Source of the DNA: Psammoneis japonica
Taxonomy: Eukaryota
NCBI GenBank assembly: GCA_008632985.1
Contig: QPGO01000102.1
Coordinates: 1-64,000 of the forward strand
Direction: 5' to 3'
DNA: 64,000 nt
Part shown: positions 8,020-60,700 of the stretch, piece after piece
Layout: every line of letters begins with the position of its first letter
Position numbering within the stretch: the stretch's first letter is position 1
Program-made: the position numbers and the translations under genes
Notes under the pieces: model-generated
Seen by the model: only the letters and a program-made list of their open reading frames with translations
What the model was told of the DNA's origin: nothing
The model's database searches: none

Positions 8020-11000
8020 CGTCTCAATGCGGCATCTCAACCATGAGCGTTGCCGCATGCAACCCCGGCAACTGCACCAATGCCAACTGCATCTATGGTG
8101 GCATGGCAAGCAGCACTCACAGGCATCCTGAGTGCAGCAGAAACCTTCACACTCCCTGTGGGAAAGCAGACGAACGACTTGCACTGCTTTCAACTTTGAC
8201 AAGCTCCAAAGCACCCATTTGAGATCACTGTTGTGAATTTTATATTTAAATATTGCCAAACAATTGCATTAGCCTAAGGAACAATCAGCACCTCATTGCA
8301 CTTCCACCAGCTTGAGAAGAAAACAAGCTGCTCCCTGGCGCAGAAGGCACGACCAAGGGTTGCTGCCGTTGATCTTCAAATGGATTGTTCCGCATCCTTG
8401 GCTTGAGATGCATTTTTTTATAACTATTTGGTCCGCATTCACCTTGGCACCTGTGCTGCAATGGGTGCCGAGTGGGCCTGTCAGCGACGGCGAGACAGGA
8501 GAAACTGTGAGGAAAAAACTGCGCCACACTTGACAATCATCAAACGCACAAAACATGAGATGTGTGCAACAAACAAACATTTCCATCACATGTTCGACAT
8601 TGTCATTAGCAAATTTTGTTGTTCTTACCTTTGCAGTCCAAAGCCGAGCTTGATTGTGAATGCCACTGTGTCAGATGCGGCAGTCCTGTCAGTGTCCTCT
8701 CTGGGAGCAAAAGTCGCGAAACACCCAAGAGGTGAGGAGCAGCAACAAATCCACTGCAAGCATCATTTTTTTCCACAGTCACATTGATCCGTAGCGGTGT
8801 TCATGCCGTCGCTGCAATGGGTGCCGGGCAGACCTGTGAGCGACCACAAAACAATGGAAAAAGTGAGAGAAAAGCTGTGCCTCAGAAAAAAGCATCAAAC
8901 GCCCAAAATGCGGGCTTTGCAATGAGTGCAAACACAACCATGCGATTTTTAAAGCTAAGTTTAGCAAGCATTGGCATTCTCACCTTTGTCCTCAAATCAC
9001 CGAGTGGAAATGTCAATGCTGCTGTTGCCGACGCGGTGGCGCCGTGTGTTTCCTCTCTTGCAGCAAAAGTCATCAAACACCCAAAAGGCAAGGGCAAGCA
9101 AAAAATCCAAAGCAAGCATCATTTTTTTCACAGTGTCATCAGTCAATGTTGGCATTCATGCCTTTGCTGCAATGGGTGCCGAGCAGAACTGCGGGCGTTC
9201 AAAGGCCATGGTCAAGGTGACGGCGCGGTGTTTTTTGAGCGTCGCTCGCTTCGTCTTGGAGTTTTTTTTTGGGTTCAACTCTCGCGTGGGGTTTGCGCAG
9301 GTTGATTGCCAGCACGTGGCTTCTCTGCTGATGGCTGCGGGTTGGTCTTCTTCCCCGTAGGATGAGCACTGCTCTCTGCAGGGCAGAACTGAGGGCAGAT
9401 TTTTTTGGATGTGTTGGCCCGGCACCGTGCATTGCATGTGGTCCAAAAGATCCATCTGATCGCCGTCGTCCGTTGCGCTCCTCGTGCGTTTGCACGCACC
9501 ATCTGACAGCGAAGCAAATGAGGTGGCGTGCAAGATCAACAAAACTGCTGAGCCCACAAAACATGAGCAAAGAGGACATTCAAAATAAACAGATGCGATG
9601 GCTTGTCACAAGATGTGGCTTGTCAGATGCGCTGGCAGAACCTCCTCCTTTGCCACAAAGGGGAAATTTTCAGAGCTTCTTTTTTCACTCGGCCAAGTTG
9701 CAATGCTCAGAAGTGCTTTCTCTTCACATCCGGAAGTGCCCACCACAGCTCACAATGTGCAGCATTTGCTTGCATCATGTCACAAGGTTGAAATGGACAA
9801 TGCAAACAAGGAAATGAGAGTCTGTGCTCTTGTGTGTTTGCTCTCTCTCTCTCTCTGGTCCGTGGGGCACTGGACACACACGTTTGGGGGGCTGTCCGAG
9901 CGCTGATGCAGACAACAGTTGGACAGAGAGATCCTTCCAATGAGGGTGAGATTCAGATGAGCACTTGGCCACAGAGTCAGGCTGGAGCCTTGACTTCTCA
10001 GCAGGCTGAAGCTCTGTGCACACCGCTGCTGGGGCTGCAAGAAGCTCTGGCGCAGGAGGGCACTGGAGTGGGCTGCCGTTGCTCGTGGAAGAGCTGCTTG
10101 CCGCTCACATCAAAAAGGTGCTCCAGCTCTCCAGACGATGGTGGGGCCTTGCAGCTGGGCCTTGGACATTTTGCATTTTTTGACCATGAGCTGCATGTCA
10201 TGCATGCACATCTTTGTGTGACTTTGAATTTGTTCTTTTGTGCTGGTGCTGTGCTTTGGGTGCATCTCTTTCCACTTGGGGGGGGGGGGGGGCATCCTCC
10301 ACTCAACACCTTTTTTGACTTTTCTTGCAGAGCATGAAGAGGCACAGCTGTGCTGCACAAAAGTTGTCATCATCTGTTTTGATGAGAAAGACAAACATGC
10401 TCACATGTGGTTGCCCACTGTGGGAGAGTCATGGAGCACACACACAGAATTTGGCAGGCTCCAGAATGTCACACAGAGCCCCGCCCAAGCTGGCATGCAC
10501 CCATGAGCAGATGGCTGTCAAGGTTGCAGTTGCCATGATGGCATCAACAAAATTGAGAAATTCTCAGGTTGTCCACACATGCAAAGCATGCTGATTTGTT
10601 GGCTGGCTTGGCAGCTTGCGGCAGAGTCCACACAACACTTTTCTGCAGATTGCGCGCTGATGTCTGTTGCTCTTCTTCAATGTCCCCTTGGAGCACTTGG
10701 AGTTGTCTGCAAGAAAGGTCAAAAAATTCTGGAAGTTCAAATTCTCAATGGGGTGTGTGGCACTCAAAGCAACAGAACAAGATTTGTTGGCGCGCATTTG
10801 AGCAACCACGACACTCTGGCAAAAGGTCTTGTTGGCACATGCAGGGCAAAGCATGATGACTGGACCAAAAATGTTCATGAGCTTCCTGCCACTGACAGCA
10901 AAAGTGGTCAACTCAGCAAACAGACAAGCTTGCTCAACCTTTTCAGTTTGAGCTTTTTGGAGCAAAAGAGCCAACTCAGACCCCAGCTGTGCTGTTGCAA

Positions 11001-12660
11001 AAGGCAAGCAAGTGACAAGCCCAGGCATCAGACACCCTGATCTTGTCTGGTTCTCAGGCACGTCAACTTTGATCACAATTTGGGTCCTCCATCTTGAGTG
11101 GCAGCTTGGCTTGGTGCAATGTTGGCAGCTGGCCCCATCTAGAAAGTGGTGCCCAAAAATCCTGCCAAGTTGTGCCCAAGAGTTTCTTGACAACAGGGCA
11201 GGTTGGGTGTGCAGAGCTGCTTGTCCAAAAAAGGTGAAAGGGCTTGAAAGTCATTGTGGTCAAAAGAGCTGTGGTGTTAAGACCAATGAAATTGTCAACA
11301 AGTTGCAGTCCATTGCCAGTGTTTGATCAAAAAGTGCTCCTCTCTTTGGTCAAGAAAGAACCCTCCATTGTGAAGTTGGGCTCACCCAGCTTTTTGAAGC
11401 TGGAAATTCAGAGAGCCACCATTGCATGGTGTGCTCACCTCCTGGGTTGACTTCCAAAGTGGTGGAAAACAAGCTTTCAAAGCCAAAGGCAAAGGCAAAG
11501 CTCTGGTGCAAGAGATGAACTTTTTCCATTTGAGTTGTTCTCACTCTCACTCTTCAAGATCTGGTTTAAGATCAAGAGGCTCTGCAATGCCAAAAGCCAA
11601 GTGTGCTGCCTGCCAAAAACATTGCTGCTCTGAGTTGGCATCAGGGTGCATCAGCATGCATTTCAAACAGCCCACCACAGTTTGTTTGTACAAGCACCAC
11701 CTCTTTGGACACCACAAGCTTGACAGCATTGAGTGCTTCACCCTTGATGCAGGCACAGCCCCATTTGGAAGCCCTGCCTGCAAGACTTGCAGGGGACATC
11801 ATTGTTCCTCTGAGTGAACAAAAAATTCCCACTCTTTGGCTCAGCCACCACCCACACACTTGAGCACCTCAACAACAGCCTTCTTTTGTCATTGATTGGA
11901 TGCCTTGGATGGTGACTTCACATTGTCCACAATGCTCCAAGAGAGTTCAGCAAAAGATGGGATTTGTGGCACTCACCATCTGAGAGTCCATTGCTTTGAA
12001 GTGAGCCTTTTTGAATGGCCAGAAGGTCAATGGCATTTTTGGAGTTGGTGGAAGGAGCAAACAAAAAATGAGTCACAAAACATGCTTGAAATTTGTTGTC
12101 ACCAAAGTTGCAGGTGTTGAGACCAACGAAGTCACCAAAAACAGGGAGTCCATCACCAGCACATGGTGAAAAAAAGAGCTCCTCCTTGGTCAAGAGAAAA
12201 CCCCCCGCGTTGTGGCACTGGACCTGCCCAGCCACTTTCTGCAATGCACTTGGAGTTGGAAATTCAGCCACCATTGCAGGGTGAAAAGAGCATCATTCCT
12301 CTGAATGAACAGAGCTTTTACTCATTTTGTGGCCCAGCCAAACACTTGGCTGCCTCAACCTTCTTTGCCAATGGCTGAAGGCCTTCTCTGGTGACTGCAC
12401 ATCCAAGGTGCTCCAAGAGCATTTGGCAAAAGATGGGCTTTGTGGCATTGGTGAAGTAAGCCTTTTGCAATGACCAGGAGGTCAACAGCATTTTTAGGGT
12501 TGATGAAAGGAGCAACTAAGAATGTCTCACAATGCTTTGAGGTGCAGGTGGAATTCTCACAACAACACAAACAATGTTCTTTCCAGACCAAATCCTTGGA
12601 AGCAAGGTTTTGAAAGCATTTTTTGGTGATTAGGTTGTCTCTCCTCCCAGTCTTTGTTTC
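8020..12660. other. Hypermutated (TpA- and CpG-depleted, TpG/CpA-rich) relic domain 1
   Basis: TA is nearly absent over kilobases and CG is rare from about 9600 onward. Many short Cys/His-rich ORFs occur in all six frames. The domain contains internal duplications. Borders are approximate. Confidence 0.85.
8456..9200 (-). repeat. Degenerate tandem repeat, about 355-bp period, with exon/intron-like structure
   Basis: CTGCAATGGGTGCCG recurs at 8456, 8812 and 9167. The units share AAAAGTC..AAACACCCAA and AAGCATCATTTTTT. Minus-strand GTAAG/GTGAG donor-like sites lie at equivalent positions. Confidence 0.65.
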
Positions 12661-12989
12661 AGCAAGTCAAGATGTGTAGTTGCGGCAGAGATGTACACCG
12701 TACAAAGGGATTTTTTGTGTGAAGAGCGAAGTCGATTTACCTGACGGATTTCAGGGTGCATGCAAGTCTTCGCTTCTCGTCCAGGTCTTGGGCCATGCAA
12801 CAGGCATTCGTTGGGACCAACATGGCAGGAAAGTGAAATCGATACGCAGCCGGGGACCTGGCAATGGGATTAGTCTACCTGGTATGTTCCCAACACGCGA
12901 GACACGTCTACTGCTAGAGAGGGCGGCTGCATACATTGTTAAGAAAGGGTCAATCATGATGCACAATAAGCCACAATGGCGTTATAGAA

Positions 12990-13443
12990 CCAAGTCGCGA
13001 ACTGACCTGACAGTTGTACTCTATCTTATCCTTGACGTGCACAGCAATTTAGTGGTTCAGAAAATCGGCCCAAGTGTAATTGACAAAGAAATGTTGGTTC
13101 CCCCGAAAGTAGAGGGACGAGTAGAACTTCTTGACGTTCCAAACCTTGATTGGATTGACCTTGTATTTGACCACATCCACGTTCACATTAACTTCGGGGC
13201 TATCCACAATATTCTTGAGACCCTTGCGAGGAATAGGGATCGATTCTCCTCCGAGGTCAATGGGAAAGTCAGCGAATCCTTCGAGTTTTCTCAAGCAAAA
13301 CCACCGTGAATCCCCGACGCCTCGAGAATATATTTCAACTTCGCCGGGTTTGGCATTCTTCTGAATAGAGTGTAAGCCGTAGTCCATCCAGCAGCGCCGG
13401 CTCCAGCTACCAACACCTTGGAAGGTGCCATGCTCTTGTTCAT
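12990..13443 (-). pseudogene. Flavin-containing amine oxidase, N-terminal fragment (copy A)
   Basis: KVLVAGAGAAG (FAD-binding), ILEASGIHGG and FADFPIDLGGE. Frameshifts and a stop are present. The C-terminal half is missing relative to copy B. Confidence 0.75.
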
Positions 13444-17769: not shown

Positions 17770-19958
17770 TCAGAGGCTCTAACACACAGCCAGCATCAGT
17801 CGCACAGACAAGGATTCTTCGAGGCAATCAGAGGCAGCTGCGCAGGGGTTGTGTGGATGATTCCCTGTGAAAGATGAGGAGCTGAGCTTCAAGTGCACTC
17901 TGTGACAGATGGTGTGCAACAAAATGAATGTGAAAACAGATCATGAAGTGTGGCAGGGGCCAACAAGGAAGCAGCACACACAGAAGAGATTGTCAAAGAA
18001 AAGAGGCAAGGGCAGCAGCGAAGCAGATGCGAAAGAAGGCCACAGGCCAGCAGTGGCGTGACAGTGGAAAAGCTGAGCTGTTTTCTTCCACCCCCTCTCA
18101 TAACTGTCACCAGCTTCACACATGCTCTTGCTCAGCACCAGCACTTGGAACCAGCAGAGACTCTCTCTGTCACTCCTCCTGAGAGTCCTGGGGATGCACA
18201 GGGCAAGTGAGAGAGCCTGGAGACATTGTGTGGAAAAAGTTTGTGAACACTCACTGCTCTGCTGCACTGCAGGGGGCGTGGCATGCAAGAATGTGTCTGG
18301 TGAGCATGGCAGAGCAGCTTGTGCCAAGCTCAGAGGTGTTTGCCCTGTGTTCTTTTGCTGTGCCAGAGAGCTGTCATCTCAGGGCAGAGAAAACATTGCT
18401 GTGTTGGCGCATCAAAGGAAAAGGAGAAGCGAGAAGAGCCAGGAGCAATTGCACAACAGAAGCACCCAGCTGACAACAAGGGTGTTGGTCAATGGGTGGT
18501 GTCAGCAACCAAGATGTGCATGTCTCACGCAGCATGTCATGAGCCTTCGGAAGACTGTTTGTGCACTCAAACAGACTCTGGTTTTCAGACATGTTCCCAC
18601 TGCTCAACGGACACACCAAATCAGCAACTGCATTGGAAATTGTCCCAGACCTTTCTCCTGCTGCACTCCCAGTGTTGGTGAATGCTGCCCATGCTGGACA
18701 TTGGCAGATCAAATCCGGGGTGCTCCGGTCTCTCTGCCACCCGCTCCTTCAGTTCCCAATGATTTTTTTGCTGTGTTGAAATTTCTCCCTCTGGATGGGA
18801 GTCATTGCTGTTTGATGGCTTGACTTTGCACCTGTCTGTGTTTGAGATTGCACCAGTGGGCAGCAACAGATCGGTTCTGAATTTTTGGGGCACATTTGGT
18901 TGGACACTCCTCACAGTTGACAGGAGTCCATTGGTTGATTGTGCTGGACCATTGTTTGGTTTTCTCCTGCTGTCTTGTCACGCTGAAGCATGTGGACCTT
19001 TGTCCTTTCTCCATTTCCTGTTTCAGCTGATGGAATGTTGTTGCAAAAAGTTTGTGCCAAAGGTGTGGACCTGCATTGTGACAACTCATCGCCAGTTCGC
19101 AATGTCTCCAATTTTCAGGTGTCACCTTGTCCGGCAGATGATGAGGCCACATTCAAAGTGCCAGTGATCATTGCCAATGACATCACATTGCAAACACTCT
19201 CTCTGCTGACTGAGATCTTTTACACAAAATTTTTCACTCCATGCAACAAATCTGCAAAGCATCCAGTGATGATCAGTTTGGCACCAAGGTTGCTGTCCAC
19301 TGGGTGAAGGGTCACCAAGACGAAACATCACCCATCAAATCCTTGTCCCTGGCAGCCAAGTTGAATGTCCAAGCCAACAAACTGGCAGGACAATGCCAAA
19401 GCCATTGAATGCCCCACTGCAGGGCCAACCTGGTTGTTCAGGGAGCTGCAGTCTCATCCAAGTGCAAGTGTGCTGTCCAATGTGAAGCATCAAGTCCAGC
19501 CCTCATTGGCTGTGCATGAAAGAAAAGCATGGTTGGTCCATCCAATGAAGTGTGCAAATCTGTTGACTGGGAAGTGCGCGCCAAACTGATGCATTGAAGT
19601 GCCCATCAGAAAGTCAGCACCATCAAGCAAGCCAGTGCAGGACCTTCTTTTGACAAACAACATCGTCCATCAACACAACCCCACCTGCCCCAATTGTTGC
19701 GTGCACTGTCAAGATCCAATGGAAGACAGAGACCACATTCTCTGCTGCCCACACAACAAAGCTTGGCACCAAGTGGACCTTGTTCATCCTCATGGATGTT
19801 GGCAAGAGCTGGCAACAGATGGGCCAAAATGCATGAAGCTGTGCATGGAGGGCCAATGTCAGCAATGACTTTGCCCCAGTTTGACCTCTGTCAAAGCAGA
19901 TTTTTCAACAGCCACAGGCTGCACTGCATGGTCAACTGGGTGCTGATGTGACTGCTCT
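17770..19958. other. Hypermutated relic domain 2 (left flank of Copia-1)
   Basis: TA and most CG are lost abruptly after about 17780. Confidence 0.85.
19290..19800 (+). mobile_element. Degraded non-LTR retrotransposon fragment (RNase H end + C-terminal CCHC)
   Basis: HWVKGHQD...LAAKLNVQANKLAG (RNase H N..AD.LA motif) at 19298, followed by CVHCQDPMEDRDHILCCPH at about 19700. Confidence 0.65.
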
Positions 19959-20234
19959 TGACAGGATTTGAACAGGATTTGGATGCGCGCGAAGCATCGC
20001 GCGCTGTTTAGTTTACCGCGCACACCTTTGTGTGCTTTAGTTCCGCGCGTTCACGCGCGATGTAGTTTGCTTTCGAGCCACAAGGCTCACAAGAATAATA
20101 ACAGTAGCCCGATTGTACCGACTTACACGTCTTTCGGCTCCTGCAACGGTCTCTGAGCGGAGACTCATCTGCTATTTAGACAGCAGTAAGGAGTTATTGT
20201 TTGAATTCTTGCCATTTGCCTTCAATTTCTATCA
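19959..20234 (+). repeat. Copia-1 5' LTR (276 bp)
   Basis: Direct repeat of 26793-27069; ends TGACAG...CTATCA. Confidence 0.95.
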
Positions 20235-21173
20235 GATTAACAGTCTTGCTCATTGTCAACCCATTGAGCAACCGCCATCGTCGTCGTTGATTTACCAACG
20301 ACGCTATTTCAATTCTACGTGGACCTCCGTATATATTCTACATACATCGGCAAGTCTACGCGCATTCAATACCAGGGCATCGGCAGGAAGTTAACGTCAC
20401 CGTCAAGTCTCCTTACCGCTGGATATCTGGATTGATTATACTACCTTTGATCGCTGAAGACATACATTCAACGGTCACATCCAAGTCTATCCTTGATCCT
20501 CATCCCTTGATATACCTATTCATCGGTTAACGGTCAAGAACCCTACATATTCAAGGATCTTCGTCGCTGAAGACATGTGTATATATACATATCTTCACGG
20601 CCAAGAACCTGTACCCACTCTTCGGACTGCGGTTTTGCTGCCACTCTACAAGCACACCGAGTCCATTGTACCTGATCTACCCCGGACTACTGGTGCTCTA
20701 CAGTTCTACTAGGTCCACGAGGACGACTGTGAGAGCAAGCAGCCGTGATTGCAGCCTGCGTTGGGGCGAGGGTGCTTTCCCGCGTTTGTTCGTTCGTCCA
20801 CAGCGCCCAACGCCTGCGTCAACTGGCCAGCCTGATCGGGAAATCCAACCGACATAAAACAAGAAGGGTTCGGGGGTCTTGTCCACCTCCAGTCAGCTCA
20901 CCTGCAGGGGTTTGCAACCCGCCACTCCACTCGCAAGCAACCCAAAGCGCCGCCAGCTGCGGGTTCGGACGTGCCGGCACAACTCTACGGACCGGATGGG
21001 AGGTTCAGCACTTGACAACGAACGGGATGACAAAGCCCGGCAACTTCTGATTTTAAGACAGTTCAAGATTTCAAGTCAAGTCTGTTTCAAGTCAAGTCCA
21101 TTCTCACCCAAGTTTCGAGTCTGCCTTCACTTCCCAACCAGAATTGATTGTCCTGACACCACTTTTGTCTGCC

Positions 21174-24100
21174 ATGGTTCTCACTCGTCAGCAACAAACC
21201 GATGGTTTCGAGCACGTTGTTGGAACCGTGCTTGCCCAAGGTGCTGGGAGTCCTCTTCGTTTGGCTTTGGCCCAAGACGGCACGGACTCGCATCAGGAAC
21301 TGTTCACGTTCATGCCGTCCCAAATCGACTCGCTTGAGTGCGACAACGGCACCAATGCAATCCCTTTGCCCCGTGGTCATGAGAACATGTTGGCAGCACT
21401 GGTCAGCCTGCACATTGTCAAAGCACACAAAGGTCTTGACGTTGCCAACGACTCCTCTTTGTTCATGCATGACGAGTTCCTTGCCTGCCGCCTCAGCCCG
21501 GACTGCATGTCCTCTCTGTCCATCGGCAGCTCACCCCTTGCACCTCCACATGTCACCAACCCGACCAAGGCACGCGACCCGGTGCGAGACTTCAAGCGAG
21601 GCATCAAGCGTGATCCCACCGCTTTCACGGCTCTCAAATCCGACAAGCAGTGGCACACTTGGCACACCTCACTTGTGGCACAAGCCCGTGCCCAAGACGT
21701 CGAGTGCATTCTAGACTCGTCGTACAAACCGACCAGCCCCGAAGACAAACTGCTCTTTGCTGAACAGCAAAAGCACATGTTCGACGTCTTCGAACGCATC
21801 CTTCTCACCGACAAGGGCAAGGCTCTCATTCGCGAAAATGTGGGGTCTTCTGACGCACAGACCGTCTGCCGCTCCTTGTCTGAGCACGCGCTTGCCTCCA
21901 CCCGTGCATCTGTCGAGTCCTCCACCCTGCTCACGCACCTCACCACCGCACGTCTTGGTGATGGCACTTGGAAAGGTCCGACCCGCGGGTTCATCCTTCA
22001 TTGGCAAGATCAGTTGCACAAGTGTGAGGCACTCATCCCCGCCAGCGACCACTTCTCTGAAGGACAGAAGCGCGTCATGCTCGAGAATGCCGTGCACCCT
22101 GTCGAGGAACTCCGTGCTGTCAAGAACCAAGCTGATCAGCATTGTGCGCAGAGTGGCAAGAGCCTCACATGCGATCAATGCTGTGGCTTGCTCCTCTCCG
22201 CGGCAGCTCAGTGCGACAGCACGTTTCAACCCAAGACGACACCTCAAGCTCCCCGACGCGCCACATGCGCACACGACGTCTGCTCCGAGGAACCGTCCGA
22301 CGATGTGTTCTACGACATTGACAGCGACGTTGACGTCCTTCAAGCCAATGCTGCCTGCACCCGTGGTCCCAGCCTCGCCGGTGTCCAATGGAGACGTCTC
22401 CCTCCCGACCACCAACGGCTCTGGGATTCGCTGCCCGATTCCTCCAAGGCGATCATCCTTGAGCACTCTCGTCCGCCTCCCCGCAACCCGCGAGCCAGCA
22501 ACTGCCATGAGTCTGTTGCGGCCAACCTTCACGACCAACACCTTGGGAGTGACGGTGATGTCAACTTGTCCAACACGACTCCTGCTGACTGTGGTGACTC
22601 CGCCACACATGTGGACGCCACTTCGGACAATCCCATCCTGGCGCACCTCACCAAGCGCAAGCCACTGCCACCCGGTGATCTGCAACGTCTGTTGTCTCCC
22701 AACCAAGCCCCCAATGCCAGTCGACCGGGGCCATCCGCCGCTTCCTCTGTCCCGCCAGCTTCTGCAGATGACACAGAACTCAACGGCCGCACTTGCCACC
22801 GCGTTGACAACCACAATGTCATTTGCTCTGCCTCTGCTCATCGCTCCACACGCACTGGCGCTCTAGTCGATCGTGGAGCCAACGGCGGCATTGCTGGCGA
22901 CGACGTTCGCGTCATCGCACGCACCTCTCGCCAAGTCGACGTTCAGGGCATTGACGATCATCAATTGGCGGACATCCCCATTGTCACCGCTGGTGCCGTC
23001 ATTGAGACACAGCGTGGTCCCGTCATCGCCATCCTCCATCAGCGCGCATGCACGGGAAAGGGCAAGACCATCCATTCCTGCGGCCAGCTCGAATGGCACA
23101 AACAGGATGTCAACGATCGCTCTGTCAAGGTGCCCAACGGCTTGCAACGCATTGCCACTCCTGATGGCTGTGTCATCCCCATTGACATCAAGGCTGGCCT
23201 GCCTTGTGTTGCCATGCGACCTTACACTGACGCCGAATGGGACACCCTGCCCCATGTCATCCTCACCGGTGATGACACATGGGACCCTTCCGTCCTCGAT
23301 CACTCTGTCACTGACGATGACCAGTGGCACGACGCGATCTCTGACCCACAGGACGACCCCACTGCCAACCTGTTTGACGAACACGGCAACTGCCGTCACC
23401 GTGTCGTTGTCAACGAGACCATCTTGTCCGCTTCCTTGTCTGCCGATCACGCGTCCGCCCTCGATGATCACCTCATTCCGAACGACGACATGTTCTGCGA
23501 GTGTCATCTGCATGCGATTGACCCCAAGGGCGATGACGTTCCACCTCCGGAGCGCACTGTGCAGCCCAAGGACCCCCCCTTCGAGTCTCTTCGGCCTCAC
23601 TTTGGCTTCCCACCTGCCGATGCGGTCCGTCGCACTTTTGACTGCACCACGCAGTGCGCCCGCATGCCCGCCGGTACACACCTTCGCAAGGCCTGCAAAT
23701 CACCCAACCCCACCCTTAATGTGCACCGCCGCAACGAGCCTGTCGCCACTGACACCGTTTGTGCCGACACCCCAGCCGTCGACTCTGGTTGCACCAGCGC
23801 CCAACTGTTTGTTGGCACCGAGTCTACCGTCACTGACGTCTGCGGCACTGAGACGGACAAAGAGTTTGTCAACACACTCGAGGATCAGATCCGTGAACGT
23901 GGTGCCCCATCCAAACTCATTAGCGACCGTGCTCAAGTTGAGATCAGCAACAAAGTGCTCGGGATCCTACGCGCCCTCTTCATCTCCAGCTGGCAAAGTG
24001 AGCCTCACCAGCAACACCAAAACTTTGCCGAGCGTCGATGCCAGACCGTGGGAGCGCATGGCGAACACTGTCATGGACCGTTTTGGTTCGCCCGCCCACA

Positions 24101-27069: not shown

Positions 27070-27074
27070 GCTCT

Positions 27075-42000: not shown

Positions 42001-43350
42001 AACTGCTTCCAGACCTGCTCTGCCATGGTCTTCTGGTTCACTGTCCGGCTCCCACTGATCATTGACATTCTTAAGAAGTGGCGTGCACACCAAGTCGACT
42101 TCGTTCTGGCGCGTCCGCATGCCGACATCGAATGTGACATGTGCATGGAGTTGCCTGCAGGAATTGAAGCAAAATGTGGCAATGGCAAGACTCATGTTCT
42201 GAAGTTGCTCAAGAACTTATATGGACAAAAGCAAGCAGGGAGAGTGTGGCAAGAACACTTACGTGATGGATTGTTAAGGATTGGTTTCGTACAATCGGCG
42301 GTTGATGAGTGCCTGCATTTTCGTGGCAATGTCATTTTCATTCATTGTGTCGATGACGGCATCTTTGCATCCCCTGATGAGTCTGCTGTTGACAAGGCGA
42401 TGCAGGATGTCAGAGATGAGAATTTTGACATTGATGATCAAGGCACTCTGGACGACTATCTCGGTGTCAACGTCGAGACACTGCCAGACGGCAGAATGAA
42501 ACTTGCCCAACCTCACCTTGTCAATCAGATGCTGGAGATGGCCAACATTCCAAAGAGACTACCAGATAAGTCTACTCCTGCTCCTTCCTCCAAGATCCTC
42601 CACAGACATATGAGTGAGCCTGCTTTCCAAGGGAGCTTTCATTACCGATCCATCATCGGCAAGCTCAATTTTCTGGAGAAGAGCACTCGACCGGACATCG
42701 CTTACGCGGTGCACCAAGTCGCACGCTTTTCTTCCGATCCCAAGGTTTCTCACGGTGAAGCCGTACTATGGCTCTGTAAGTACCTAAGGTCAACCAGAAC
42801 TGAAGGTATTATACTACAGCCCTCAACGGACAAGTCCCTTGAAGTTCACGCCGACGCGGACTTTGTGGGCAATTGGAATAAGCTGACTGCACCCAATGAC
42901 GTCGGCACTTCCAAATCTCGAACTGGGTTTGTCATCACCTATGCAGGATGTCCGATTGTCTGGACGTCCAAGCTACAGACTCAGATCGCGCTCAGCACTA
43001 CTGAAGCTGAATTTATCGCTCTTTCGGAAAGTCTTCGAAGCGCCATCCCAATTATGAACCTAATTCAAGAATTTATGGATCACGGTCATAATGTCCCTTC
43101 CAAGACACCAGTCGTACATTGTAAGGCTTTTGAAGACAATTCTGGAGCATTGGAGATCGCGAGATTGCCTAAGATGCGTCCTCGGACAAAACACTTCAAC
43201 CTCACTCTCCACCACTTTAAAGACCATGTTCGCAAAGGTCTCATATCAATCCTACCAATTGATACGGCGGATCAGATTGCAGACATTTTCACCAAACCTC
43301 TACCACAGAATCTCTTCGTTAAGCACAGGAAATCGCTCCTTAAGTGGTAA
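39091..43350 (+). pseudogene. Copia-2 pol (PR-IN-RT-RH), one internal TGA at 41578-41580
   Basis: PR GVDSHSS; IN WHCRLGH..C..C, ADNG and QNGIAEK; RT KNLYGQKQ and CVDD; RH ADADF, STTEAE, EDNSGA and QIADIFTK. Confidence 0.9.
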
Positions 43351-43393
43351 GACGTTTTCGAGTCATCATTCCACCCGACATTGTTGAAGGGAG

Positions 43394-43741
43394 TGTGACA
43401 ATATTCATATTTGCATGTTTTTACAACAACATCGGACCTCCACGATCCAATCAGAGATCCAAGATTCGAACCCCGTGTGCGATGCTCAGTCTCGAATCCC
43501 GCGGAAGCCGAGTCACGAATGCGATGTTTGTTCCTAGCTTCGCGCTTGTTTAACTTCGCGTTTCCTTTAGATGGCAGCTGCATCTGCTCATAAAAAAACT
43601 GCTCATAATCTTTCTAACGTACTGATTATCACCTCTCAACTTTTGGTACAATAAAGTTACTGATTGATTGTTGCATCGCAATTGCAGCTTTTAATCACTG
43701 AAAGTGCAGACGAATCCCAGAATTCCGGCTACTTTCCCACA
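43394..43741 (+). repeat. Copia-2 3' LTR
   Basis: Direct repeat of the 5' LTR. Confidence 0.97.
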
Positions 43742-51449: not shown

Positions 51450-51650
51450 AAACTCACACACATGTAAATAGTAGAGCACTAGTAGAATAAAACATTAAGA
51501 ACCAACTGATCATTGCCTTGTTTTGGCCTTCAAGAGTCTAGAACGATCATAGAAGAAAACGCGGCCCCTTATCTAATTGAAAATGAGTTAACAGCTCCGC
51601 ACAATCAAAGATAGAGCTTGCTACCAATAACGCGATGAAACACCTACCTC

Positions 51651-54376
51651 CTACCTCCAGACTAGACGTTCAATTGTGCCGCCAAAGATATCAGCGCAAT
51701 ACATGTAGCCATCAGGTCCCTGCCAGAAATCAACCAAAAACTTATTGGTGGAATCCGAAAGCTCTCGTACTCCGATGAGAGCGCCACTGCTATCGAAGTT
51801 TGCCTCTCGGATGACCTGATCACCAATATCTGTGAATAACAGCCTTCCAATCATTTCCGCGGGGTAGACTGGAGAGTCTTCAATGAATGCTCCCATGATA
51901 ATGGCAGTCCCGCCGGCAGAATGGGATCGTGCCCACACAGGTGCCGTCACATCAGGGTTAGAGTTGTAGAAATTCTTAATTCTTTGTATATCTCTGTACC
52001 CGCCTGTTGGAATATTGCTACCACCGCCGCCCTCGTATGCAGGCCACCCAAAATTTGCCCCTTTGGGTCCATGATTCATTTCCTCCCATGTCACCCAGCC
52101 AACGTCGCCGATAAAGATTCCGCCGTCCGCTGGATTGATGGCAAATCGGTACGGATTACGAAGGCCAAGCATCCAGACTTTCGACCTGTCACTTGTAGGG
52201 TCCCCGTCGTAGTATGGGTTATCTGGGAGACCGTTTCCAGTGGAAGGATCGATTCGAAGGATCTTGCCAGCGAGGCTGTCTAACTGCAAGGACCGATAGT
52301 TGATGATATCACGCGCCCGTACGAGCCTCCGTCCCCCGTTGAGCAATAAAGCATACCGTCGAGTCCAAATTCTAGGTCGCCGATGGTGTGGCTATCCTCG
52401 TCGGCGGGAATGCAGTCTTGTATCGGGCTATCAAGAGTTCCACATGAATGGGGATCATTGAGAGCTGGCTTTCTGTCGGGAGTTCCAATGTTGGCAAAAA
52501 CGCTGTTCTTGCCGATCAGGATGACTTCGGTGTTGCGATTTACAGAGGTCCCCTCTTGATTAGCTTGGAAACGGGAAATTCGAGACACGCGTGCTCCAAT
52601 TCCGTCCGGACCACCCGCTCCGGTCCTCCCTGGTCGTGATATTTCTGGAGGATCATAAGTGTAGGCAACGTAGATGAATCGGTTGTTTTCGTAGTTAGGG
52701 TCGACCACGAAGCCCAACATCCCCCGATCTTTCGTGATTCCGTTGACAATGTCCTCAATATCGAGGAACACGCTCCGCTCTCCGTTTGGTAGAATCAGCT
52801 GTATCCTTCCGATCTTTTCGGATACAAGCATTTTCCCGTCTGACAACTCGACGAAACCATTGGGAGTAACAAATCCTCCCGAAAGGAAGGTTTCGGGAAC
52901 TAGCTGCCCTTTCCCACTCACGTCGGGAGCTTGAGGCAAGGTAGCGCCGTCGATAAGTTCTGGGATTTCGTTGGCCGTAAGAGCCCGATTATAGATTCGT
53001 ACCTCGTCGATGTGACCTTCAAAAAAGTTGTCGACATATCCGATGTTGACCTGGTTATGTGGAAATGGCTTAAGATTGCGAAAGGAGTCAGTTGAGATGA
53101 CCTCTCGACCATTGACGTAAATGGTGAACGTAACTCCGTCGAATGTCACGGCAATGTGATTCCACTCGTTCAACCTCAAAACTGGAACTGTGGTTACAGC
53201 GTTCCAGTTGGTTCCGTCTCCGAAACCTGCATGGATCTTATTCTCATCGAAGACATATATGGAAGGGTATCGAGCAAGGGCGGTTCTACCACCTTCAAAC
53301 CCGATGATCCCGTGATAATTCCTATCGTGGACTTTGATTTTATCCACAGAGACTGACTGTACGGTCCAGCACTTAGGTCAAGACCAGGACCACTGACAGT
53401 AACGTAGTCATCGATACCGTCAAAAAACATGCTTTGTTCATTTTTCATAGTCTGGAACTTGGGTCGAGCCGAGGACTTGCGGGGAAAGCTGACACGAGTC
53501 CCCTCGTTCTTATTCTCGCTCGAATCTTCCACTACCTCGTTGGAAGGTTGCTCGAATTTCCAGAACCCAACCAAATCAGGCCCCGACTCATCATCGGTGA
53601 TCGTGATTTCGGCGGTACGTGGCACGCCAAGCTCCGCCCCAAGAACTCCGAAAAGTGAGACGGAAAATTTTTCAACGTCCTCCTTTTCATTATCGTTGAT
53701 GAGAGGAACAACAATCTGGCCCGTAGTTTGGCCGTTGGAGAAAACAACCTGGCCATCATCCTGAGGAACATAGTCAACCCCTGCGGTCGCCGTAGCAACC
53801 CCGCGGCAGTTTGGTAACGAACTATGGCCTCACCAAAACTGCCTTCGGTGCGGACGAGATCAATCAGCACTTGGCCATCTGATTCCTTGACGGTTACAGA
53901 GTTTGTGCGCAGAGCAATTCTCCCCGGGTTAGTACCCTTTTGACACTTTCTGCATTTTCCTTTTCGTCGATTGCACTTGCACACGCCGCAATCGGAATGC
54001 TGGCTGCACTCGTTAAAGCTTGGAGCACACCGACGAATCATTTTCTTTAGGAACTTTTTGCAGAAAAATCCATCAGGGCAATCGGCATGCTTCTGGCACT
54101 CCACGTTTTGAAGCTTCCTGTCGTCGATCTTGGGAATCGACTCCTAAAAAAGTGAGATAATGTTTGGTGAAGTCGTGAGTCATCCAACGGGTGACAATGT
54201 CGAAATAATTTTCCCCAGCAATACGAGCAGCTGCAAGAGAGAGTGTTGCTTACCTTTCGAAGGTACCGCTCTTCCCCAGTTGTGGTTGCGTTTTCTGTCG
54301 CAGCGGCACTGACGGCGAGAAGAGCCATCAGAAGCATGCTGATGTCCACAGCCAGCACGGAAAACAATGTTCTCAT
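51651..54376 (-). CDS. Secreted Cys-rich + Calx-beta + LamG + glucose/sorbosone dehydrogenase protein, copy 1 (three 1-nt deletions vs copy 2)
   Basis: Signal-peptide exon 54376-54254 and intron 54253-54144. Colinear with 60916-63641. Deletions near 53802, 53326 and 52310. Confidence 0.8.
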
Positions 54377-54829
54377 CTTCTTGTGGTTCGCGGGTTCGCT
54401 GGAGAAGATAACGTTGGGTATCGGTGATATAGATGGGTCGATCGGATTTTTTGTGATGTAAAAGGAAAAGGACACTTCACTTTGGGTGCACAAATGAGAA
54501 GCGTTGCACTATCTTTCTAGCTAGTTGTTGTGATCTGATCAGGATCTTTTTGATTCTTGATCTTGTGAAAGCCAATGAAAATCTATTGCCCCACATAAAT
54601 GTTGGAGCTCATTTAACAATCGACTGTCGTTTAATCTCGTACATATTTCAATTGCCCTTCCTTCTGTCATTTCTACTTCCAGGCTCATAGTTGCCAACAT
54701 TTAACTGTTGCTTTTATTTAAGGGGGGTCATCCCCAGCGTTACTAACTGTAGCTCGTGTTTATTTTTCGCACAACGAGCTCGTGATTTGAGATAGGAGGA
54801 CCCGTCTGAAAGCCCCTTGTGCCCATTGT

Positions 54830-57800
54830 TGAGTGGCAACATTGGCGTGTCCGCTTCTCTTCATTGCATGCACTGACATTTGCATGGTGGATCCTTCATG
54901 GCACTGTGAATGGCTGTGTGACCCAAATGGTTGAAGGGACAAAATTGCGCAACAACGGCAACCCAAATTTCCCCCACACGTGATTTCTTGTGACAGGTGC
55001 GAGACATCTTTTGCTGCAAGCCTTGCAGAGAAGGGCCATCAGCGACCTGTGTGCCAAAAGAAGAGGTGGCATTTGAGCACACTTGCAACAATTACCATGG
55101 CAAAAAACAAACCACTGTGACCACAGCAGCTGTGGCAGCCACATGGTGCGAGCGCTGTTGCTGCCGTGGCATTTGCAACAAGAAATCATGCAGGTCAGCC
55201 CAATCACGCAGTTCTTCCAGAGCAATGAGAGCTGGTTTGAAAGGTAAAATAGAGGGTGAGAGTCCAGCAGCAGACAATCTGATGGCCACTTGTTCAGCTG
55301 CATGCAGGAAAAAACAAAGGTGCGAAGGCAAAATGCAGAGACACTGCAATCATGTGGGGTGTCTTGCACCCAGCGGCAACCAACCCAATTGGTGCCAAGG
55401 TTGCTGTCAGAGGATGACAACCCAGGCTCCAGGAGCTCTGCACTGCTGATCCACAAACCCTGACCCCACAAAGATTTTTGCAAAAAGCCAAGTCTGCCAG
55501 CTTCAACACCAAAACAGGAAAGTTTGTGCACCTTGAAACTCCAGTGCCCATTTCACATCAAAGAAGCTTGCAACTTGGCTTGCAACACAGCTCTTGAAAA
55601 GGACTGTCCCAAAGAAGAGCTTGTAAGATCACCCCTCTGCATTCCTCCAAAAAGGCAATTCCAGCACACAGTTGAGTGCGCACAGAAGTTGGGGGGCTGG
55701 CCAGAATGCATGGGTGTCACCTGAGCAAGTGCCACAAAGTGTGGAGTGCTTTGCCCTCACAATGCTTTTCCCCATGCGTGGTTTGGCCGCAGCAACCCAA
55801 TTTAGGATCCTGGAAGCAGCAAAAGTCAGACAGTCTTCAATGGAATCCCAGCAACATTTCTCTTTCATTGGCCAAGCAGTTTTGTCATTTGTTGCAAATG
55901 GCCATGAGCTCTGCTTCTGCATGCCTGCACTGAGATGACTTTCTGGCATCAGCACCATGCCCATGTGCTGTTGCATTGCATTCTTCCCACACAGTTCCCA
56001 CCATGATTTCCAGATGCAGGTGCCTGTCTGTGCTGTTTGCACTGGAGAGGAGGACATTTTTCTTGTGTGCTGCTCTGGCAATCTGGTTTCAACAAGGCAC
56101 AAAGTGGCAACTCATGGGCTCCAACACAGTGTGGTCACCATGAGATCAAACCTGGCTCAAAGGACAATGTCAAAGAAACATTTTGGCAAATGCAGTTGGG
56201 TGGGCATAACACCCACACAAGCAAAATTTTAAAAGACACCACTTCACTTGCACCCAAAGTTTTTGATCATGCCACAAACATGACAGAAAGCAAAACTCAG
56301 CAAGGTTGTCAATGAGTGCCCAACAGTTGACAAAAAGCAAAAAAAACATCAAAAGTGTTTGAAAAGCATGAGACACTTTTTGATGGCACACAAAGCAAGC
56401 TCAGCTGTGGACCAGCCATCAACCTGCACATGCAGTCTTGCAAGGATGTGACACTCCACATAAAATCAGCATTGTCTGGTGGTGTTCCTGAAATCCACAA
56501 AGACATGCTGCCAAAAGAAACTGAGCAATTGGCAGCTGAGAGAGCTTGAGAAGGAGTGACAGCAGCCAGCATGCATGCCCTGCTTTCTTCACTCTCCAAT
56601 CCAACCAACTGCTCAATTCATCTCCCACCTCAGGAAACCATGTGCAAAAGACTGCCAAGTGGGGTGGAGTCAGCATTGCGTGAATGCCAGCCAACATTTT
56701 TTTTGCTCAGAGTCAAGCCAATCTGTTCCTTGCACTGACTTTCCACCCCCCAAATGTGCTTGCATTGTCAGAGCACTGCCAGGAGGCATCATTTTGACAG
56801 AGGTGCCACCATTGTTGCTGGTGACAGGAGGCAACCATGGTCAAAGTTGAGTTCAGCTGCATGCAATTTGCCAAACAATGCGAGGGCACCAAACAGGCTT
56901 CAGTGGCAACTGTCTGACAACTCAGCACAGTCAGTTGTGGGTGGCAGAGTGGTGAAATTTCATTCCAAACACCACTTGCTCAACCTGCTCATTCTTCTCT
57001 TTCTCTTCTTCTTGCTTTCTGTTCAACTGGAACTTGGCAGCTCTTTAGATTCATCATGCACTTTTTTTGTCTCTTGATGGTTGAGCAGAGCCATTGTTTT
57101 GAGCAATGTGTGGTGGCAACAGACAACAAGAGACTGGCACATGTTGTTTGGCAATGGAGCAGAGTTTTCTTAAAGTTCTTCTCCTTTTTCAACAGCCTCA
57201 TTCAGGGGTTCAACACAAACAACTTGGCCATTCCATTGTTTCCACACACAGTGATTCAAGCCAAGTGGCACCCTGCATGAAAGGATGCAACCACCCAGAA
57301 TGATCTTGCTCTTTGTCCCCAAAATGCAGCCACCTGGATGCCTGAGTGCAAGCCCCACATGTGTGCTGCCCCATCCTCTCCAACAAAAATGGCAGCACCT
57401 TCAGTCATGCAGCAGCCCCACATTTGGCTGGCATGGCTCCATTCCACGAGCATCAACTTGCAGCTGTCATTCTCTGCTCATTTCCTTGATCAGACAATCC
57501 AATCATCTGAGGTCAAAAATGTGCGTGCATCACACTGAGCTGCTGTGATGGAGAGAACGATGCCTCCAAGACCTTTCAAAATGTGGCTGACCTCTTTGCG
57601 TTGAGCAAGAGGATTGCTCTCATCACTCCTGGCAACTGTTGTTGCTTCCATGCTGATGCCAGGGCAGTGTGTGCCAGCAGCGCATTGTTTTCAGCTGCCC
57701 CAGCTGTTGGAAAAAAATTTCAGCAGATCAACCAAGCAATGCAGAGTGAGCAACACATCTCTTGGAACAGACTGCCCTCTCAATTGTTGCAATTTTGCGG

Positions 57801-60700
57801 TGGCCCTGTTGACTCCACCTGCACCAAAAAGCTGCTTTTTTTCAAGAAATGACTGCTTGGCAACAATGGCTGAGGCTCACCAGTGGCTTTCTCTGGGGCT
57901 GGCAACAGCACCTGTTGCAACAACAGGATTGTTCTTTGTCATGTGTCTGTCTCACACTCTCTTTTGTTTCTGGTTTTTGGCTGTGCTCAGCGTGATGCAG
58001 CATGTGGCAGTTGGAATGATCCCATGAAAATTTTGTTGTCAATTTAGAGAGAACAAATTGAAAGTTTCATTTTCTGGCAATGCCACACCTTGCTCATTTT
58101 TGTGCATGCTTGAGGCACAATGCTTGCTTGACTTGCAAGGTTCTGTTTGATTTGCTGGAGGCAGGTGCACAAGTCAAGATTCCCCCCCCCCCCCCCCCTG
58201 TCCATTGCAGCACAAGAAGTGGCCAGTTTGATGCATCAGCAAGCTGTCCAAGCAGTTGTTGCCAGCACCCCAGAAAGAACAAAATGAAAAACATGAGCAC
58301 TCTGCATTTGCCAAAACTGCAGCTGGAAGCAAAAGAAGAGAAATGACTTTGGACCATGCATGGCACCTCTCTGAAGTGCACACAGAGTTTTGCAAAAAAT
58401 CTTCAGATGGGTTGTTGAGAAATGACCCGTGCAATGAATGTTGCATTTTGTGGACCTTGAGAACACTGACACTTGACAAAAGTCTTTTCCAATCTTGTGT
58501 GTTGAGTTTTTTGTGGCATTTCTTTGCCTTTCCTGAGCATGTGCTCCACAAGAAGATGAAAAGCAACTGACATTTGACAAGTTTTTTTCTCTCGCATCTT
58601 GATTTGTTTGCAGCATTTCTTTGCCTTTCCTGAGTGTGCTCCACAAGAAAAATGAAAAGCAACAGAGCACAAGCACAAAGTGGGCATGTTGCAAAAGGCT
58701 GTCAGCAAACCATCAGTCCTGTGTCTTCTTCTCGGATGTTCTTGCCCTGCCACAAATCCATGGAGCCTCTTTTGTCTTGTGGACCTTTTTTTTTGGGCAT
58801 TTCTGTGCCTTGCTTGAGTGTGCTCTTCACAAGAAAACAAAAAGCAATGGAGTGCAAGCATGGCATGGATGCATCACAAAGGCACAAGCTGCCATGCACA
58901 GTTGCAAGCCACAAACTGTTGACATGTTTGTGACCTTTGGCCCACAAGGGAAAAAAAGCAAACAAGAGCTGGCGGATGCCCCCTGCTTCCTTGCACTCAT
59001 GTGGATTGTCCTCCAAAGTCAACATTGCAAAATGCGATCTAAAAAAGGATCAATGGCTGGCCATCCTCAATGGAGTTGCTTGTCACCAAGCTGTTTTGTC
59101 ATGTGTGCTCCACTGCTGACAGGAACAAGCCAACCTCATCATGCAGCAGGAGGAGCAGCGCAGCTGGGGCAGAACACCAGCACTTGGTGGGTGCTGCATT
59201 GATGCGCTGCTGTGACAGGTGTCCAAACCTTTGGTTTTGCAAGAAAGTGCTTGACAAATTGTCAGCTGCACAGGGTCTGTTTGACGTGTCTCCACAAGCA
59301 CATTCTTGCTTGATGACTTTGATTGTGTGACGCACAAGCAGTCATTGACAAATGTGCCAATTTGGTTGTTTGTGATGCCGAATGATTTCCAGCACCAGGT
59401 GGGAGCTTGCAGTGATGACATGCATCAAAACAATTGTTTGATCTCATGCACCACATGCCACCCATCATGAACATTTCCACATGCACCCTTCTGCTGAGCT
59501 GTTTTGCGCTTCCTGTTGTGCCACCCATTTGTGAAAGAACAAAATTTGAAGAGCACACTTGGGCACAAACTGGAAAGGATGTGCTTCAAGCATGGACAAG
59601 TTTCTGCATGATTTGCAGAACAGCCTCTTTCTCTGTTGGCAGTCTGTGGCACAAGAGTTGTTGCCTTGCAATTTTGCTGTGGAGCTCATGCACAGAATTC
59701 TGCAGGCCCCACGCACATGACAGAGCTCCGCCTCCGGGGCCACAATGTGCTGCCATTTCATGTGCCAACCCTGCATCTGCCACCATCCATGTGCCAGATT
59801 TTTGTCACCTGCTGAGTTGAAGCCTGGGGCAAGATGGCAGAGACGTGTTCCAGCCACGCATGAACTGAGTGTGGGTGAACAATGACATTTTTGCAATTTT
59901 TGTGAGGTCTCTAACTTGCAACCATGTGCTTGCCAAAGAGACCATTCAGCTGCTGTTGACAATTGTGCTGGCAGTCAACAATGGCCTCAACTGCAAGTGT
60001 CAGCCAATTGACTGCAAATGCCAGCTGTGGCCAACTCAGCAATGTGTGTGCAACTTGATTGTGGCCACCAATGACTGCAACTGTGTGGCAAAGAGCTGCA
60101 TGTTTGCAGTGCTCTTGGGCTGTTTCTTATTCTGAATTTAGCCAATTTGTCCACCAGAAACTGTTGCTGGTTGCTGGTTGCTGTTGCATGTCTCTGACCA
60201 ACATTCGTTGTGACAGCTGTTGGAGCTCCAGTTGGCTTGGTTTGCAGCACAATTGCAGTTGATTGCAGCCACAGCAATTGATTCTTGCTCCCAAATCCCT
60301 GCCCAATGCAAGAGCTCAACAAGAGGCTGGTTGGCTTGATTGGACACAAGGGGAATTGACAGCAGAAGCCACTTTCATGGAAAAGATCTTTCAAAATTTC
60401 TTGGTCTTTCTTTGAATCTCCTGACACAGCATGGAGTGGGAAGCTCACAGCACCAAGACAGCACAATGGGATCTCTGAGAAAGGGCTGGCCACCTGTGAC
60501 AGAGCCAGGTGCTGCAGCTGGGCTTGAGAATGACAAGTCTGAGTCCAGCACAATGAAGCAGAAACAAGCAACGAAGGGTTCTTTTGATGTGGCTGTGTCA
60601 GAAATTGACGCCACCAGCACCGCTGATGCTGCGAATTTTGCAACGATGGACAGCGCTGCAGTTTGGCTGACAAATCCTGTGCTCTGTTTGCTTGCCAGTG
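54830..60700. other. Hypermutated relic domain 4 between the two GSDH paralogs (probably old transposon DNA)
   Basis: About 5.9 kb nearly devoid of TA and CG, with no recognisable intact ORF. Normal composition resumes at about 60710. Confidence 0.85.

Follow-up and report, generated by a model that had tools for sequence, protein, structure and literature searches.

Evidence for localized A:T-to-G:C hypermutation at TpA in mobile and other inserted DNA of Psammoneis japonica

In the present study, we analyzed 64,000 nucleotides of DNA from Psammoneis japonica (assembly GCA_008632985.1, contig QPGO01000102.1, positions 1 to 64,000 of the forward strand), hereafter referred to as the window. 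Mobile-element DNA makes up about 40% of the window, and nearly every TA step in it now reads TG or CA. The affected DNA consists of two Copia retrotransposons with long terminal repeats (LTRs), namely Copia-1 (19959-27070) and Copia-2 (37163-43741), two related unclassified elements designated A (with block D1) and B (with blocks D2 and D3), and a further unclassified insert, D5. The best explanation overall is probably a hypermutation of mobile or foreign DNA that is localized, specific to the dinucleotide TpA, of the A:T-to-G:C type, and exerted after insertion. Three independent polarizations, provided by the LTRs of Copia-1, the conserved tyrosines of Copia-2, and the alignment of elements A and B, agree on TA to TG or CA as the direction of change and on its post-integration timing.

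Results

Extent and borders of TpA depletion

When TpA was counted per block, the six depleted blocks (25,941 bp) contained 117 TpA and the remaining 38,059 bp contained 1,499; the numbers expected from the base content of each block are listed in Table 1. In sliding 1-kb windows, the observed-to-expected ratio (o/e) of TpA was 0.00-0.07 at 9.0-12.5, 18-20, 21-23.5, 27-30.5, and 55-60.5 kb and 0.10-0.27 at 23-27 and 38-42 kb, against approximately 0.3-0.97, mostly 0.4-0.9, elsewhere in the window and 0.586 when all DNA outside the blocks was pooled. The o/e of TpG and CpA was 1.3-1.9 in the blocks and 1.12-1.17 outside. The longest runs free of TpA measured 1,613, 1,556, and 1,554 bp, and, by our own arithmetic, a single run of this kind has a chance of approximately e^-60 if TpA is as dense as in host DNA (0.039 per bp). 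Four borders (17780, 30256, 54793, and 60710) are sharp, with the density of TpA shifting within tens of bases. Sixteen of the 64 1-kb windows passed the cut-offs for TpA-poor windows of a preprint on Bigelowiella natans (see Discussion), applied here as an approximation, and these formed three clusters in 64 kb.

An earlier reading of the same DNA from its letters (the sequence-only reading) had described discrete domains poor in TpA and rich in TpG and CpA, and both the sliding and the per-block counts bear this description out. Its coordinates were right to within approximately 100 bp, with two amendments: the domain placed at 21070-30270 is two things, the interior and 3' LTR of Copia-1 and an older element split by it, and the domain placed at 37850-42200 begins near 37721, with a depletion that is real but incomplete (o/e 0.16).

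Direction and timing of the changes

Regarding Copia-1, which is flanked on both sides by the 5-bp target-site duplication GCTCT, its identity was assigned from an RVT_2 match at 25305-26234 and a weak tblastn match to Copia proteins at 25341-26737. Pfam searches covered open reading frames (ORFs) of at least 200 amino acids (aa) everywhere and of at least 100 aa inside the blocks; outside the blocks, 35 of the 58 ORFs of at least 110 aa were searched in one set, plus others. Five Copia-1 ORFs searched together with 64 ORFs of at least 100 aa from D1, D2, D3, and D5 gave no match below E = 0.006 and none over the curated cut-off. The TpA o/e in the interior of Copia-1 was 0.05 over 21-23.5 kb and 0.1-0.27 up to 27 kb. 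The two LTRs (277 bp) are 94.2-94.6% identical, and this rises to 98.3% once transitions are masked. Among 15 substitutions in 277 aligned bases, 11 are T>C or A>G, and in nine a TA of the 5' LTR reads CA (five) or TG (four) in the 3' LTR, with no change in the reverse direction; the direction that the sequence-only reading drew from paired LTRs is, thus, confirmed. The two LTRs of a newly inserted element are identical, as a single template serves for both, and the target-site duplications are present here; these TpA changes were, therefore, made on the chromosome.

Copia-2 is flanked by the 5-bp target-site duplication ACGGA, and its 348-bp LTRs are 99.7% identical, the sole difference being TG in the 5' LTR versus TA in the 3' LTR. 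Its frame of 1,960 codons, interrupted by two TGA, matches the Pfam families gag-pre-integrase and RVT_2 and shows 42-58% identity to 120 Copia polyproteins from databases. A column was regarded as conserved for tyrosine when Tyr was present in at least 70% of 60 homologues. The depleted part of Copia-2 covers 14 such columns, in which Tyr has been kept in one, replaced by His in five and by Cys in five, and replaced by other residues in three, whereas Tyr has been kept in five of the 10 conserved columns outside this part. The Tyr content is 0.39% in Copia-2 versus 3.37% in the homologues, and the YVDD motif of the reverse transcriptase (RT) reads CVDD. Tyr to His corresponds to TAY to CAY and Tyr to Cys to TAY to TGY, and the Val-to-Ala, Leu-to-Pro, and Ile-to-Thr changes that were also observed are consistent with NTA to NCA. 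With 10 of the 14 conserved tyrosines now His or Cys, the evidence previously claimed from protein motifs holds.

The TpA o/e of Copia-2 was 0.162 in the depleted part versus 0.612 in its own spared tail, so that approximately 73% of TpA has been lost, while the LTRs differ at one of 348 bases. Arithmetic on these two values suggests that a targeted TpA mutates at least some hundreds of times faster than the background. At 37700-37810, where the TpA-poor segment begins, the N-terminus of gag carries a run of 14 glycines as well as a long stretch rich in Ala and Pro.

Two of the affected blocks are retrotransposons, and near-identical LTRs such as those of Copia-2 would suit an element that arrived in a mutated state. 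The changes might, on these grounds, have been introduced before integration, either by A-to-I editing of retrotransposon RNA (ADAR/TAD-like) or by deamination of the complementary DNA (cDNA; APOBEC-like), and then fixed by reverse transcription; RNA editors prefer U 5' of the edited A, as stated in the B. natans preprint (10.64898/2026.01.13.699255). However, the TpA differences between the Copia-1 LTRs cannot predate integration, the strands are equal (His and Cys replacing Tyr five times each), an element with CVDD and 13 of 14 conserved tyrosines lost is unlikely to transpose, and the deepest depletion is found in blocks without retroelement features. We consider pre-integration editing to be scarcely credible.

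The third polarization comes from elements A and B. The insertion of Copia-1 split the older element B into D2 and D3. Elements A and B share homology at their right ends (12339-13382 in A and 28443-30219 in B), and this homology stops at 13378-13382 in A and at 30215-30219 in B. The tail of A holds 31 TpA over 12614-13378 and its counterpart in B holds none; the alignment contains 22 changes of TA to TG or CA from A to B and none in reverse. The sequence-only reading had used this pair as a duplicated host gene. The pair and its asymmetry are real, but it represents the end of a repeated element and not a demonstrable host gene: the homology stops at an element terminus, and the ORF at 12680-13306 (+, 209 codons) in the unmutated tail of A had no Pfam match and no relatives among 1.84 billion protein representatives. 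The interpretation as a host gene is, therefore, not supported.

Self-comparison in purine/pyrimidine code lengthened the A/B homology and the LTR pairs, and detected no terminal repeats of D5 or of D2 and D3 combined over a noise floor of approximately 72-76%. The left of D1 (8409-9239) contains a tandem repeat of roughly 355 bp in 2.3 copies, with 69% identity between copies and 84% when transitions are masked, in which CpG is kept and TpA is lost. An assembly gap of 165 N lies at 29317-29481 inside D3, and element B has approximately 660 bp at this gap without a counterpart in element A.

Sequence context and strand symmetry

In a context spectrum pooled over the Copia-1 LTR pair and the A/B alignment, A>G or T>C changes affected 33 of 85 bases in TpA, compared with 33 of 438 A/T bases in any other context (odds ratio 7.8, p = 3e-12). 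The sequence-only reading had named the absence of such an excess as refuting its proposal; its claim of context-specific A:T-to-G:C change at TpA on both strands of inserted DNA is supported by this spectrum as well as by the Copia-1 LTRs, the Copia-2 tyrosines, and the A/B pair. Changes outside TpA were also present, such that the restriction to TpA is not exclusive here and older background changes are mixed in.

The preceding base also bears on error-prone repair synthesis by a Pol-eta-like enzyme (WA to WG) in repeatedly repaired heterochromatin, which was one of the mechanisms suggested in the sequence-only reading. At WA motifs, Pol eta is prone to A>G errors. A was changed after T at 13 of 42 positions, whereas ApA was unaffected: the 2 changes at 66 such positions did not exceed those seen with a preceding C (5 of 71) or G (7 of 73). 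This mechanism fits poorly, and we give it hardly any credence.

The two products of the process were balanced in each of four saturated blocks, with TG/CA counts of 427/445, 246/255, 354/336, and 682/694. A runs test revealed no same-strand clustering of TG versus CA along the blocks, which would be expected for processive single-strand deamination. Among the TpA that survive in the blocks, 19 of 115 are in ATA or TAT contexts versus 692 of 1,499 in host DNA (p = 1.5e-10); none of the 115 is in ATAT, five are in ATAC or GTAT, and CTAA and TTAG are enriched. As a tentative hint, the mutator may prefer a context longer than the dinucleotide, or the surviving TpA may be newly created.

Coding consequences and loss of CpG

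It follows from the genetic code that a change of TA to TG or CA removes all Tyr codons and the stops TAA and TAG, never converts a sense codon into a stop, and destroys any signal that contains TA. Elements are, thus, killed by missense, and their frames stay open. Counted on both strands, the blocks contain 77 TAA, 70 TAG, and 1,150 TGA, and the DNA outside contains 663, 676, and 1,423, respectively. Because TAA and TAG have been erased and TGA is left as the only stop, overlapping ORFs of 200-1,094 codons occupy several frames on both strands over 21057-24341 and in all of the TpA-free blocks.

A loss of CpG in four blocks was not mentioned in the sequence-only reading. The CpG o/e was 0.15-0.30 in D1 (from about 9600), D2, D3, and D5, with borders that match those of the TpA loss, while both Copia blocks showed normal values (0.79-0.91) together with a TpA o/e of 0.15-0.16. 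Since the Copia blocks lost TpA and kept CpG, the two decays are separable, and that of TpA is much faster. The loss of CpG in the older blocks is probably a second, slower decay, most simply the deamination of 5-methylcytosine. The likeness of this decay to the present case lies in the loss of CpG to TpG or CpA, whose borders coincide with those of the TpA loss in four of the six blocks; however, it cannot remove TpA and is, hence, not the source of the TpA loss.

Duplication as a possible trigger

In fungal repeat-induced point mutation (RIP), C>T changes at CpA create TpA and stop codons, and duplication is needed. The sequence-only reading had proposed a repeat-targeted process, a "reverse RIP", in which homology triggers the mutation of both duplicate copies at TpA. 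Every affected block is, or may be, a repeated element (the two Copia elements and the A/B family), and the sharp borders are reminiscent of RIP, with which the present process shares a localized, sharp-edged, context-specific transition hypermutation that inactivates mobile DNA on the chromosome. However, the window contains a natural control. A host gene is duplicated in tandem (51650-54724 versus 60915-63978), and D5 exactly fills the gap between its copies, which are 91.6% identical over 3,047 aligned bases and must once have been identical; copy 1 is likely a pseudogene. These copies have 117 and 132 TpA, respectively, and their TA-to-TG/CA differences are symmetric, with 12 each way. Since this approximately 3-kb duplication keeps normal TpA and symmetric changes, duplication alone does not trigger the process, and the term "repeat-induced" is not supported. 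The tail of A is unmutated despite its homology to the TpA-free element B, the Copia-2 LTRs, which form a near-perfect 348-bp repeat 6 kb apart, are spared, and the main hypermutated region of B. natans is single-copy according to the preprint (10.64898/2026.01.13.699255). In further contrast to RIP, TpA is destroyed here, GC rises to 0.60, and no stop is created. A homology-triggered process accordingly appears improbable.

Controls for native composition and artefact

The pattern might involve no mutation at all, being either an artefact of assembly or basecalling that stems from a modified base at TpA or a native avoidance of, or selection against, TpA. Related Copia DNA is not poor in TpA: at 79 related metagenomic loci, the TpA o/e was 0.36-0.93 for whole loci and 0.23 in the lowest 1-kb window, and none of the 79 had a 1-kb value below 0.2 or the Tyr-to-His/Cys signature (at most two of 19 columns affected). 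These loci came from the best 80 matches to a scan pattern that contained a Tyr, and serve as a composition control, not as an estimate of prevalence. The signature is, therefore, not the native composition of the family, and selection is ruled out by the loss of conserved catalytic tyrosines.

Among the 120 database homologues of Copia-2, two showed a loss of Tyr, P0122 at 12 of 20 columns and P0164 at nine of 20; the other 118 had at most two columns affected. The changes in P0122 were 11 Cys and one His, which suggests a same-strand bias in that copy. P0122 and P0164 are further cases, in independent public assemblies, and as independent homologues with the same Tyr-to-Cys/His signature they speak against an artefact. 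Moreover, additional CpG would be expected from conflicting strand calls at a palindrome, but the CpG of the blocks is depleted or normal, and, as reported in the preprint (10.64898/2026.01.13.699255), Illumina data from B. natans revealed the change in the form of new mutations. The signature is probably not an artefact, and an explanation without mutation is very unlikely.

Features and host genes of the window

The window has a G+C content of 49% and carries intron-poor eukaryotic genes, which include those for a cNMP-binding kinase, BTB/MATH, Kelch, a metacaspase, sulfite oxidase, bZIP, a mitochondrial carrier, and a Calx-beta/Laminin_G_3/GSDH protein; the sulfite oxidase gene has one intron of approximately 110 bp. 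The best named matches of the cNMP-kinase ORF were all diatom proteins (33-41% identity), which are 37-88% identical among themselves, such that the kinase lies at the lower margin of their range. For the sulfite-oxidase ORF, the best named match was from the chlorarachniophyte Amorphochlora (45%), and the best unnamed match reached 54%. The protein collection searched, whose sources include transcriptomes such as that of B. natans, contained nothing nearly identical to either of these two ORFs. Genes of B. natans are intron-rich, unlike the uninterrupted ORFs of 771-1,246 codons in the window. Together with the much higher density of TpA-poor clusters, these features suggest a diatom-like stramenopile that is probably distinct from B. 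natans. Rfam and transfer RNA (tRNA) scans of the window gave no matches. A TpA-free stretch of 258 bp at 5362-5620 within the BTB/MATH host gene, where the 1-kb TpA o/e is 0.30, is mildly unusual for host DNA and probably compositional.

Table 1. Coordinates of the inserted elements, depleted blocks, and duplicated host gene in the window, with TpA counts
Feature	Coordinates	Strand	TpA observed	TpA expected	TpA o/e	Remarks
D1, unclassified inserted or repeat DNA, left part of element A	8020-12660	.				TpA fades from 8020, almost none over 8962-12319; CpG lost from about 9600
Block counted at D1	8500-12660		17	273	0.06	
Element A, right-hand tail	12661-13382	.				Spared; homologous to 28737-30219 of B; unmutated reference copy
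D2, left half of older element B	17780-19958	.	3	135	0.02	TpA and CpG depleted; sharp left border at 17780; CpG o/e 0.18
Copia-1, 5' LTR	19959-20235	+	14			Spared; TpA dense up to ~20710
Copia-1, internal region	21054-26792	+				Hypermutated; GC 0.55-0.60, CpG normal, long ORFs in several frames
Copia-1, 3' LTR	26793-27070	+	5			Partly mutated (14 TpA in 5' LTR)
Block counted at Copia-1	21054-27070		40	276		
D3, right half of element B	27071-30256	.	2	183		2 TpA in 3,186 bp; sharp right border at 30256
Copia-2, 5' LTR	37163-37510	+	15			Spared
Copia-2, hypermutated segment, gag to mid-RT	37721-42200	+	37	228	0.16	CpG normal
Copia-2, spared 3' part (RT C-terminus/RNase H and 3' LTR)	42201-43741	+			about 0.6	
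Host gene copy 1 (Calx-beta/Laminin_G_3/GSDH)	51650-54724	-				Split over at least four frames; TpA normal
D5, unclassified 5.9-kb insert	54793-60710	.	16	400		CpG o/e 0.15; both borders sharp
Host gene copy 2	60915-63978	-				Intact 876-aa ORF at 60916-63546; TpA normal

Discussion

The sequence-only reading knew of no described system of this kind, a statement that has been overtaken by a preprint on B. natans (Mettrop et al., bioRxiv 2026, 10.64898/2026.01.13.699255). Searches of the full-text literature, with subscription journals outside their scope, returned only this preprint for TpA-to-TpG/CpA hypermutation and nothing for diatoms. According to the preprint, 231 of 302 nuclear mutations in mutation-accumulation lines fell in two integrated viral regions; 230 of these 231 were A>G or T>C transitions, every one of which was at TpA. 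The rate was approximately 6e-7 per site per generation versus 3.5e-10 elsewhere, about 1000-fold above the background, in some lines only, and the changes were detected as new mutations in Illumina data. The same text describes the larger region as single-copy and derived from a nucleocytoplasmic large DNA virus (NCLDV), reports 124 TpA-poor clusters in the genome, with an enrichment of RT and DDE domains in the TpA-poor predicted coding sequences, and proposes ADAT2, without a test, as the candidate enzyme.

The window and B. natans are alike in A>G or T>C changes at TpA on both strands, in the confinement of these changes to discrete foreign or mobile regions, in a rate that, as far as the indirect estimate from Copia-2 suggests, is far above the background here as well, and in clusters that are poor in TpA and rich in CpA and TpG. 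They differ in the targets, which are giant-virus and virophage inserts in B. natans and Copia LTR retrotransposons and unclassified inserts here. They also differ in degree, with an o/e of 0.45 in the NCLDV region versus near saturation (0.01-0.06) here, and in density, with 124 clusters in the whole genome (G*, 90% of it, 85 Mb) versus three clusters per 64 kb; these values for B. natans are those of the preprint. Base-level borders, spared edges, a negative control for duplication, and a co-located decay of CpG are added by the window. The process in the window is of the same kind as the hypermutation in B. natans, here on retrotransposons and at saturation.

Other systems show partial likeness. 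APOBEC3 converts C to U on minus-strand cDNA before integration and leaves strand-biased G>A changes; it shares with the present process a deaminase-style hypermutation of retroelements in a dinucleotide context, whereas the changes here are A:T to G:C, strand-symmetric, and post-integration. The substrate of ADAT2/TadA is tRNA with U before the target A, and engineered TadA base editors act on DNA. The likeness is in the deamination of adenine in DNA, read as G; unlike the present process, ADAT2/TadA has not been linked to foreign-DNA targeting or TpA hypermutation, and its gene had no match in the window. DNA deamination has been reported for BjADAT2 of amphioxus (PMC10354150).

We conclude that mobile or foreign DNA in this genome undergoes, after its insertion, a localized conversion of TpA to TpG or CpA on both strands equally until almost no TpA remains. 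At some of the element borders, the conversion halts over a distance of tens of bases, and in three elements an edge is spared. It would be the same process as that measured directly in the mutation-accumulation lines of B. natans. Its targeting may depend on a silencing mark or guide on foreign DNA, and not on duplication as such. Regarding the chemistry, adenine may be converted enzymatically to hypoxanthine in the 5'-TA-3' context by a nucleic-acid deaminase, which may be ADAT2/TadA-like or other; we regard adenine deamination as the leading candidate, although we would give it slightly less than an even chance. Hypermutation in situ may instead proceed through a modified thymine at TpA (5-hydroxymethyluracil or base-J-like, of the TET/JBP type), which mispairs with G or is misrepaired to yield T>C on either strand. 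The sequence outcome would be identical because TpA is palindromic and the same base pair is affected, and the DNA of dinoflagellates carries 5-hydroxymethyluracil preferentially at TpA and TpC. However, we know of no precedent for a near-complete T>C conversion by a modified thymine, no TET/JBP domain was present among the Pfam matches of the window ORFs, and the B. natans preprint prefers adenine deamination, without a test. A modified thymine is, thus, unlikely, if somewhat less so than a homology-triggered process.

Several points weigh against the proposal of post-insertional hypermutation at TpA. It does not account for the spared edges, namely the 5' LTR and leader of Copia-1 (19959 to ~20710), both LTRs and the last 1.5 kb of Copia-2, and the last 0.7 kb of element A; D2, the left neighbor of the spared Copia-1 5' LTR, is TpA-free. 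Blocks D1, D2, D3, and D5 lack terminal repeats that are detectable even with transitions masked, none of their ORFs of at least 100 aa matched a Pfam family, and their mobile or foreign origin is argued from the A/B repetition, from their having been an insertion target, and from their position. In principle, a master element that was mutated beforehand may have given rise to Copia-2, which is unlikely because the catalytic motifs of Copia-2 are destroyed. Both the targeting and the chemistry are inferred, and a palindromic target cannot separate deamination of A from a mispairing modified T. In agreement with the sequence-only reading, no candidate enzyme was found in the window, with no deaminase, TET/JBP, or Y-family polymerase domain among the Pfam matches of its ORFs.

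The present results add an independent occurrence, apparently in another lineage, on ordinary LTR retrotransposons. They also add an end state, in the form of DNA without TpA or tyrosine codons in which TGA is the only stop, borders that are sharp enough for mapping against chromatin or small RNAs, post-integration timing through one LTR pair, and a natural control against duplication as the trigger. In practical terms, gene prediction is misled by TpA-free domains, since long spurious ORFs arise there in every frame. Such domains may be found in any assembly by a count of TpA or by the loss of Tyr to His or Cys in element proteins; a eukaryote-wide survey and a phylogenetic-profile search for the enzyme are, therefore, feasible. 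A natural, context-specific A:T-to-G:C editor of DNA would also be of interest for base editing.

A TpA-directed DNA-editing defense may be common to distantly related protists, a chlorarachniophyte and a diatom-like organism, a view that we hold tentatively and as clearly less than an even prospect. It would represent an old and widespread counterpart of RIP and APOBEC that is precise to near base level, independent of duplication, and saturating, in the form of a guided adenine or thymine modifier. If this is the case, the spared LTRs and edges and the tentative ATA/TAT preference would be footprints of the targeting machinery.

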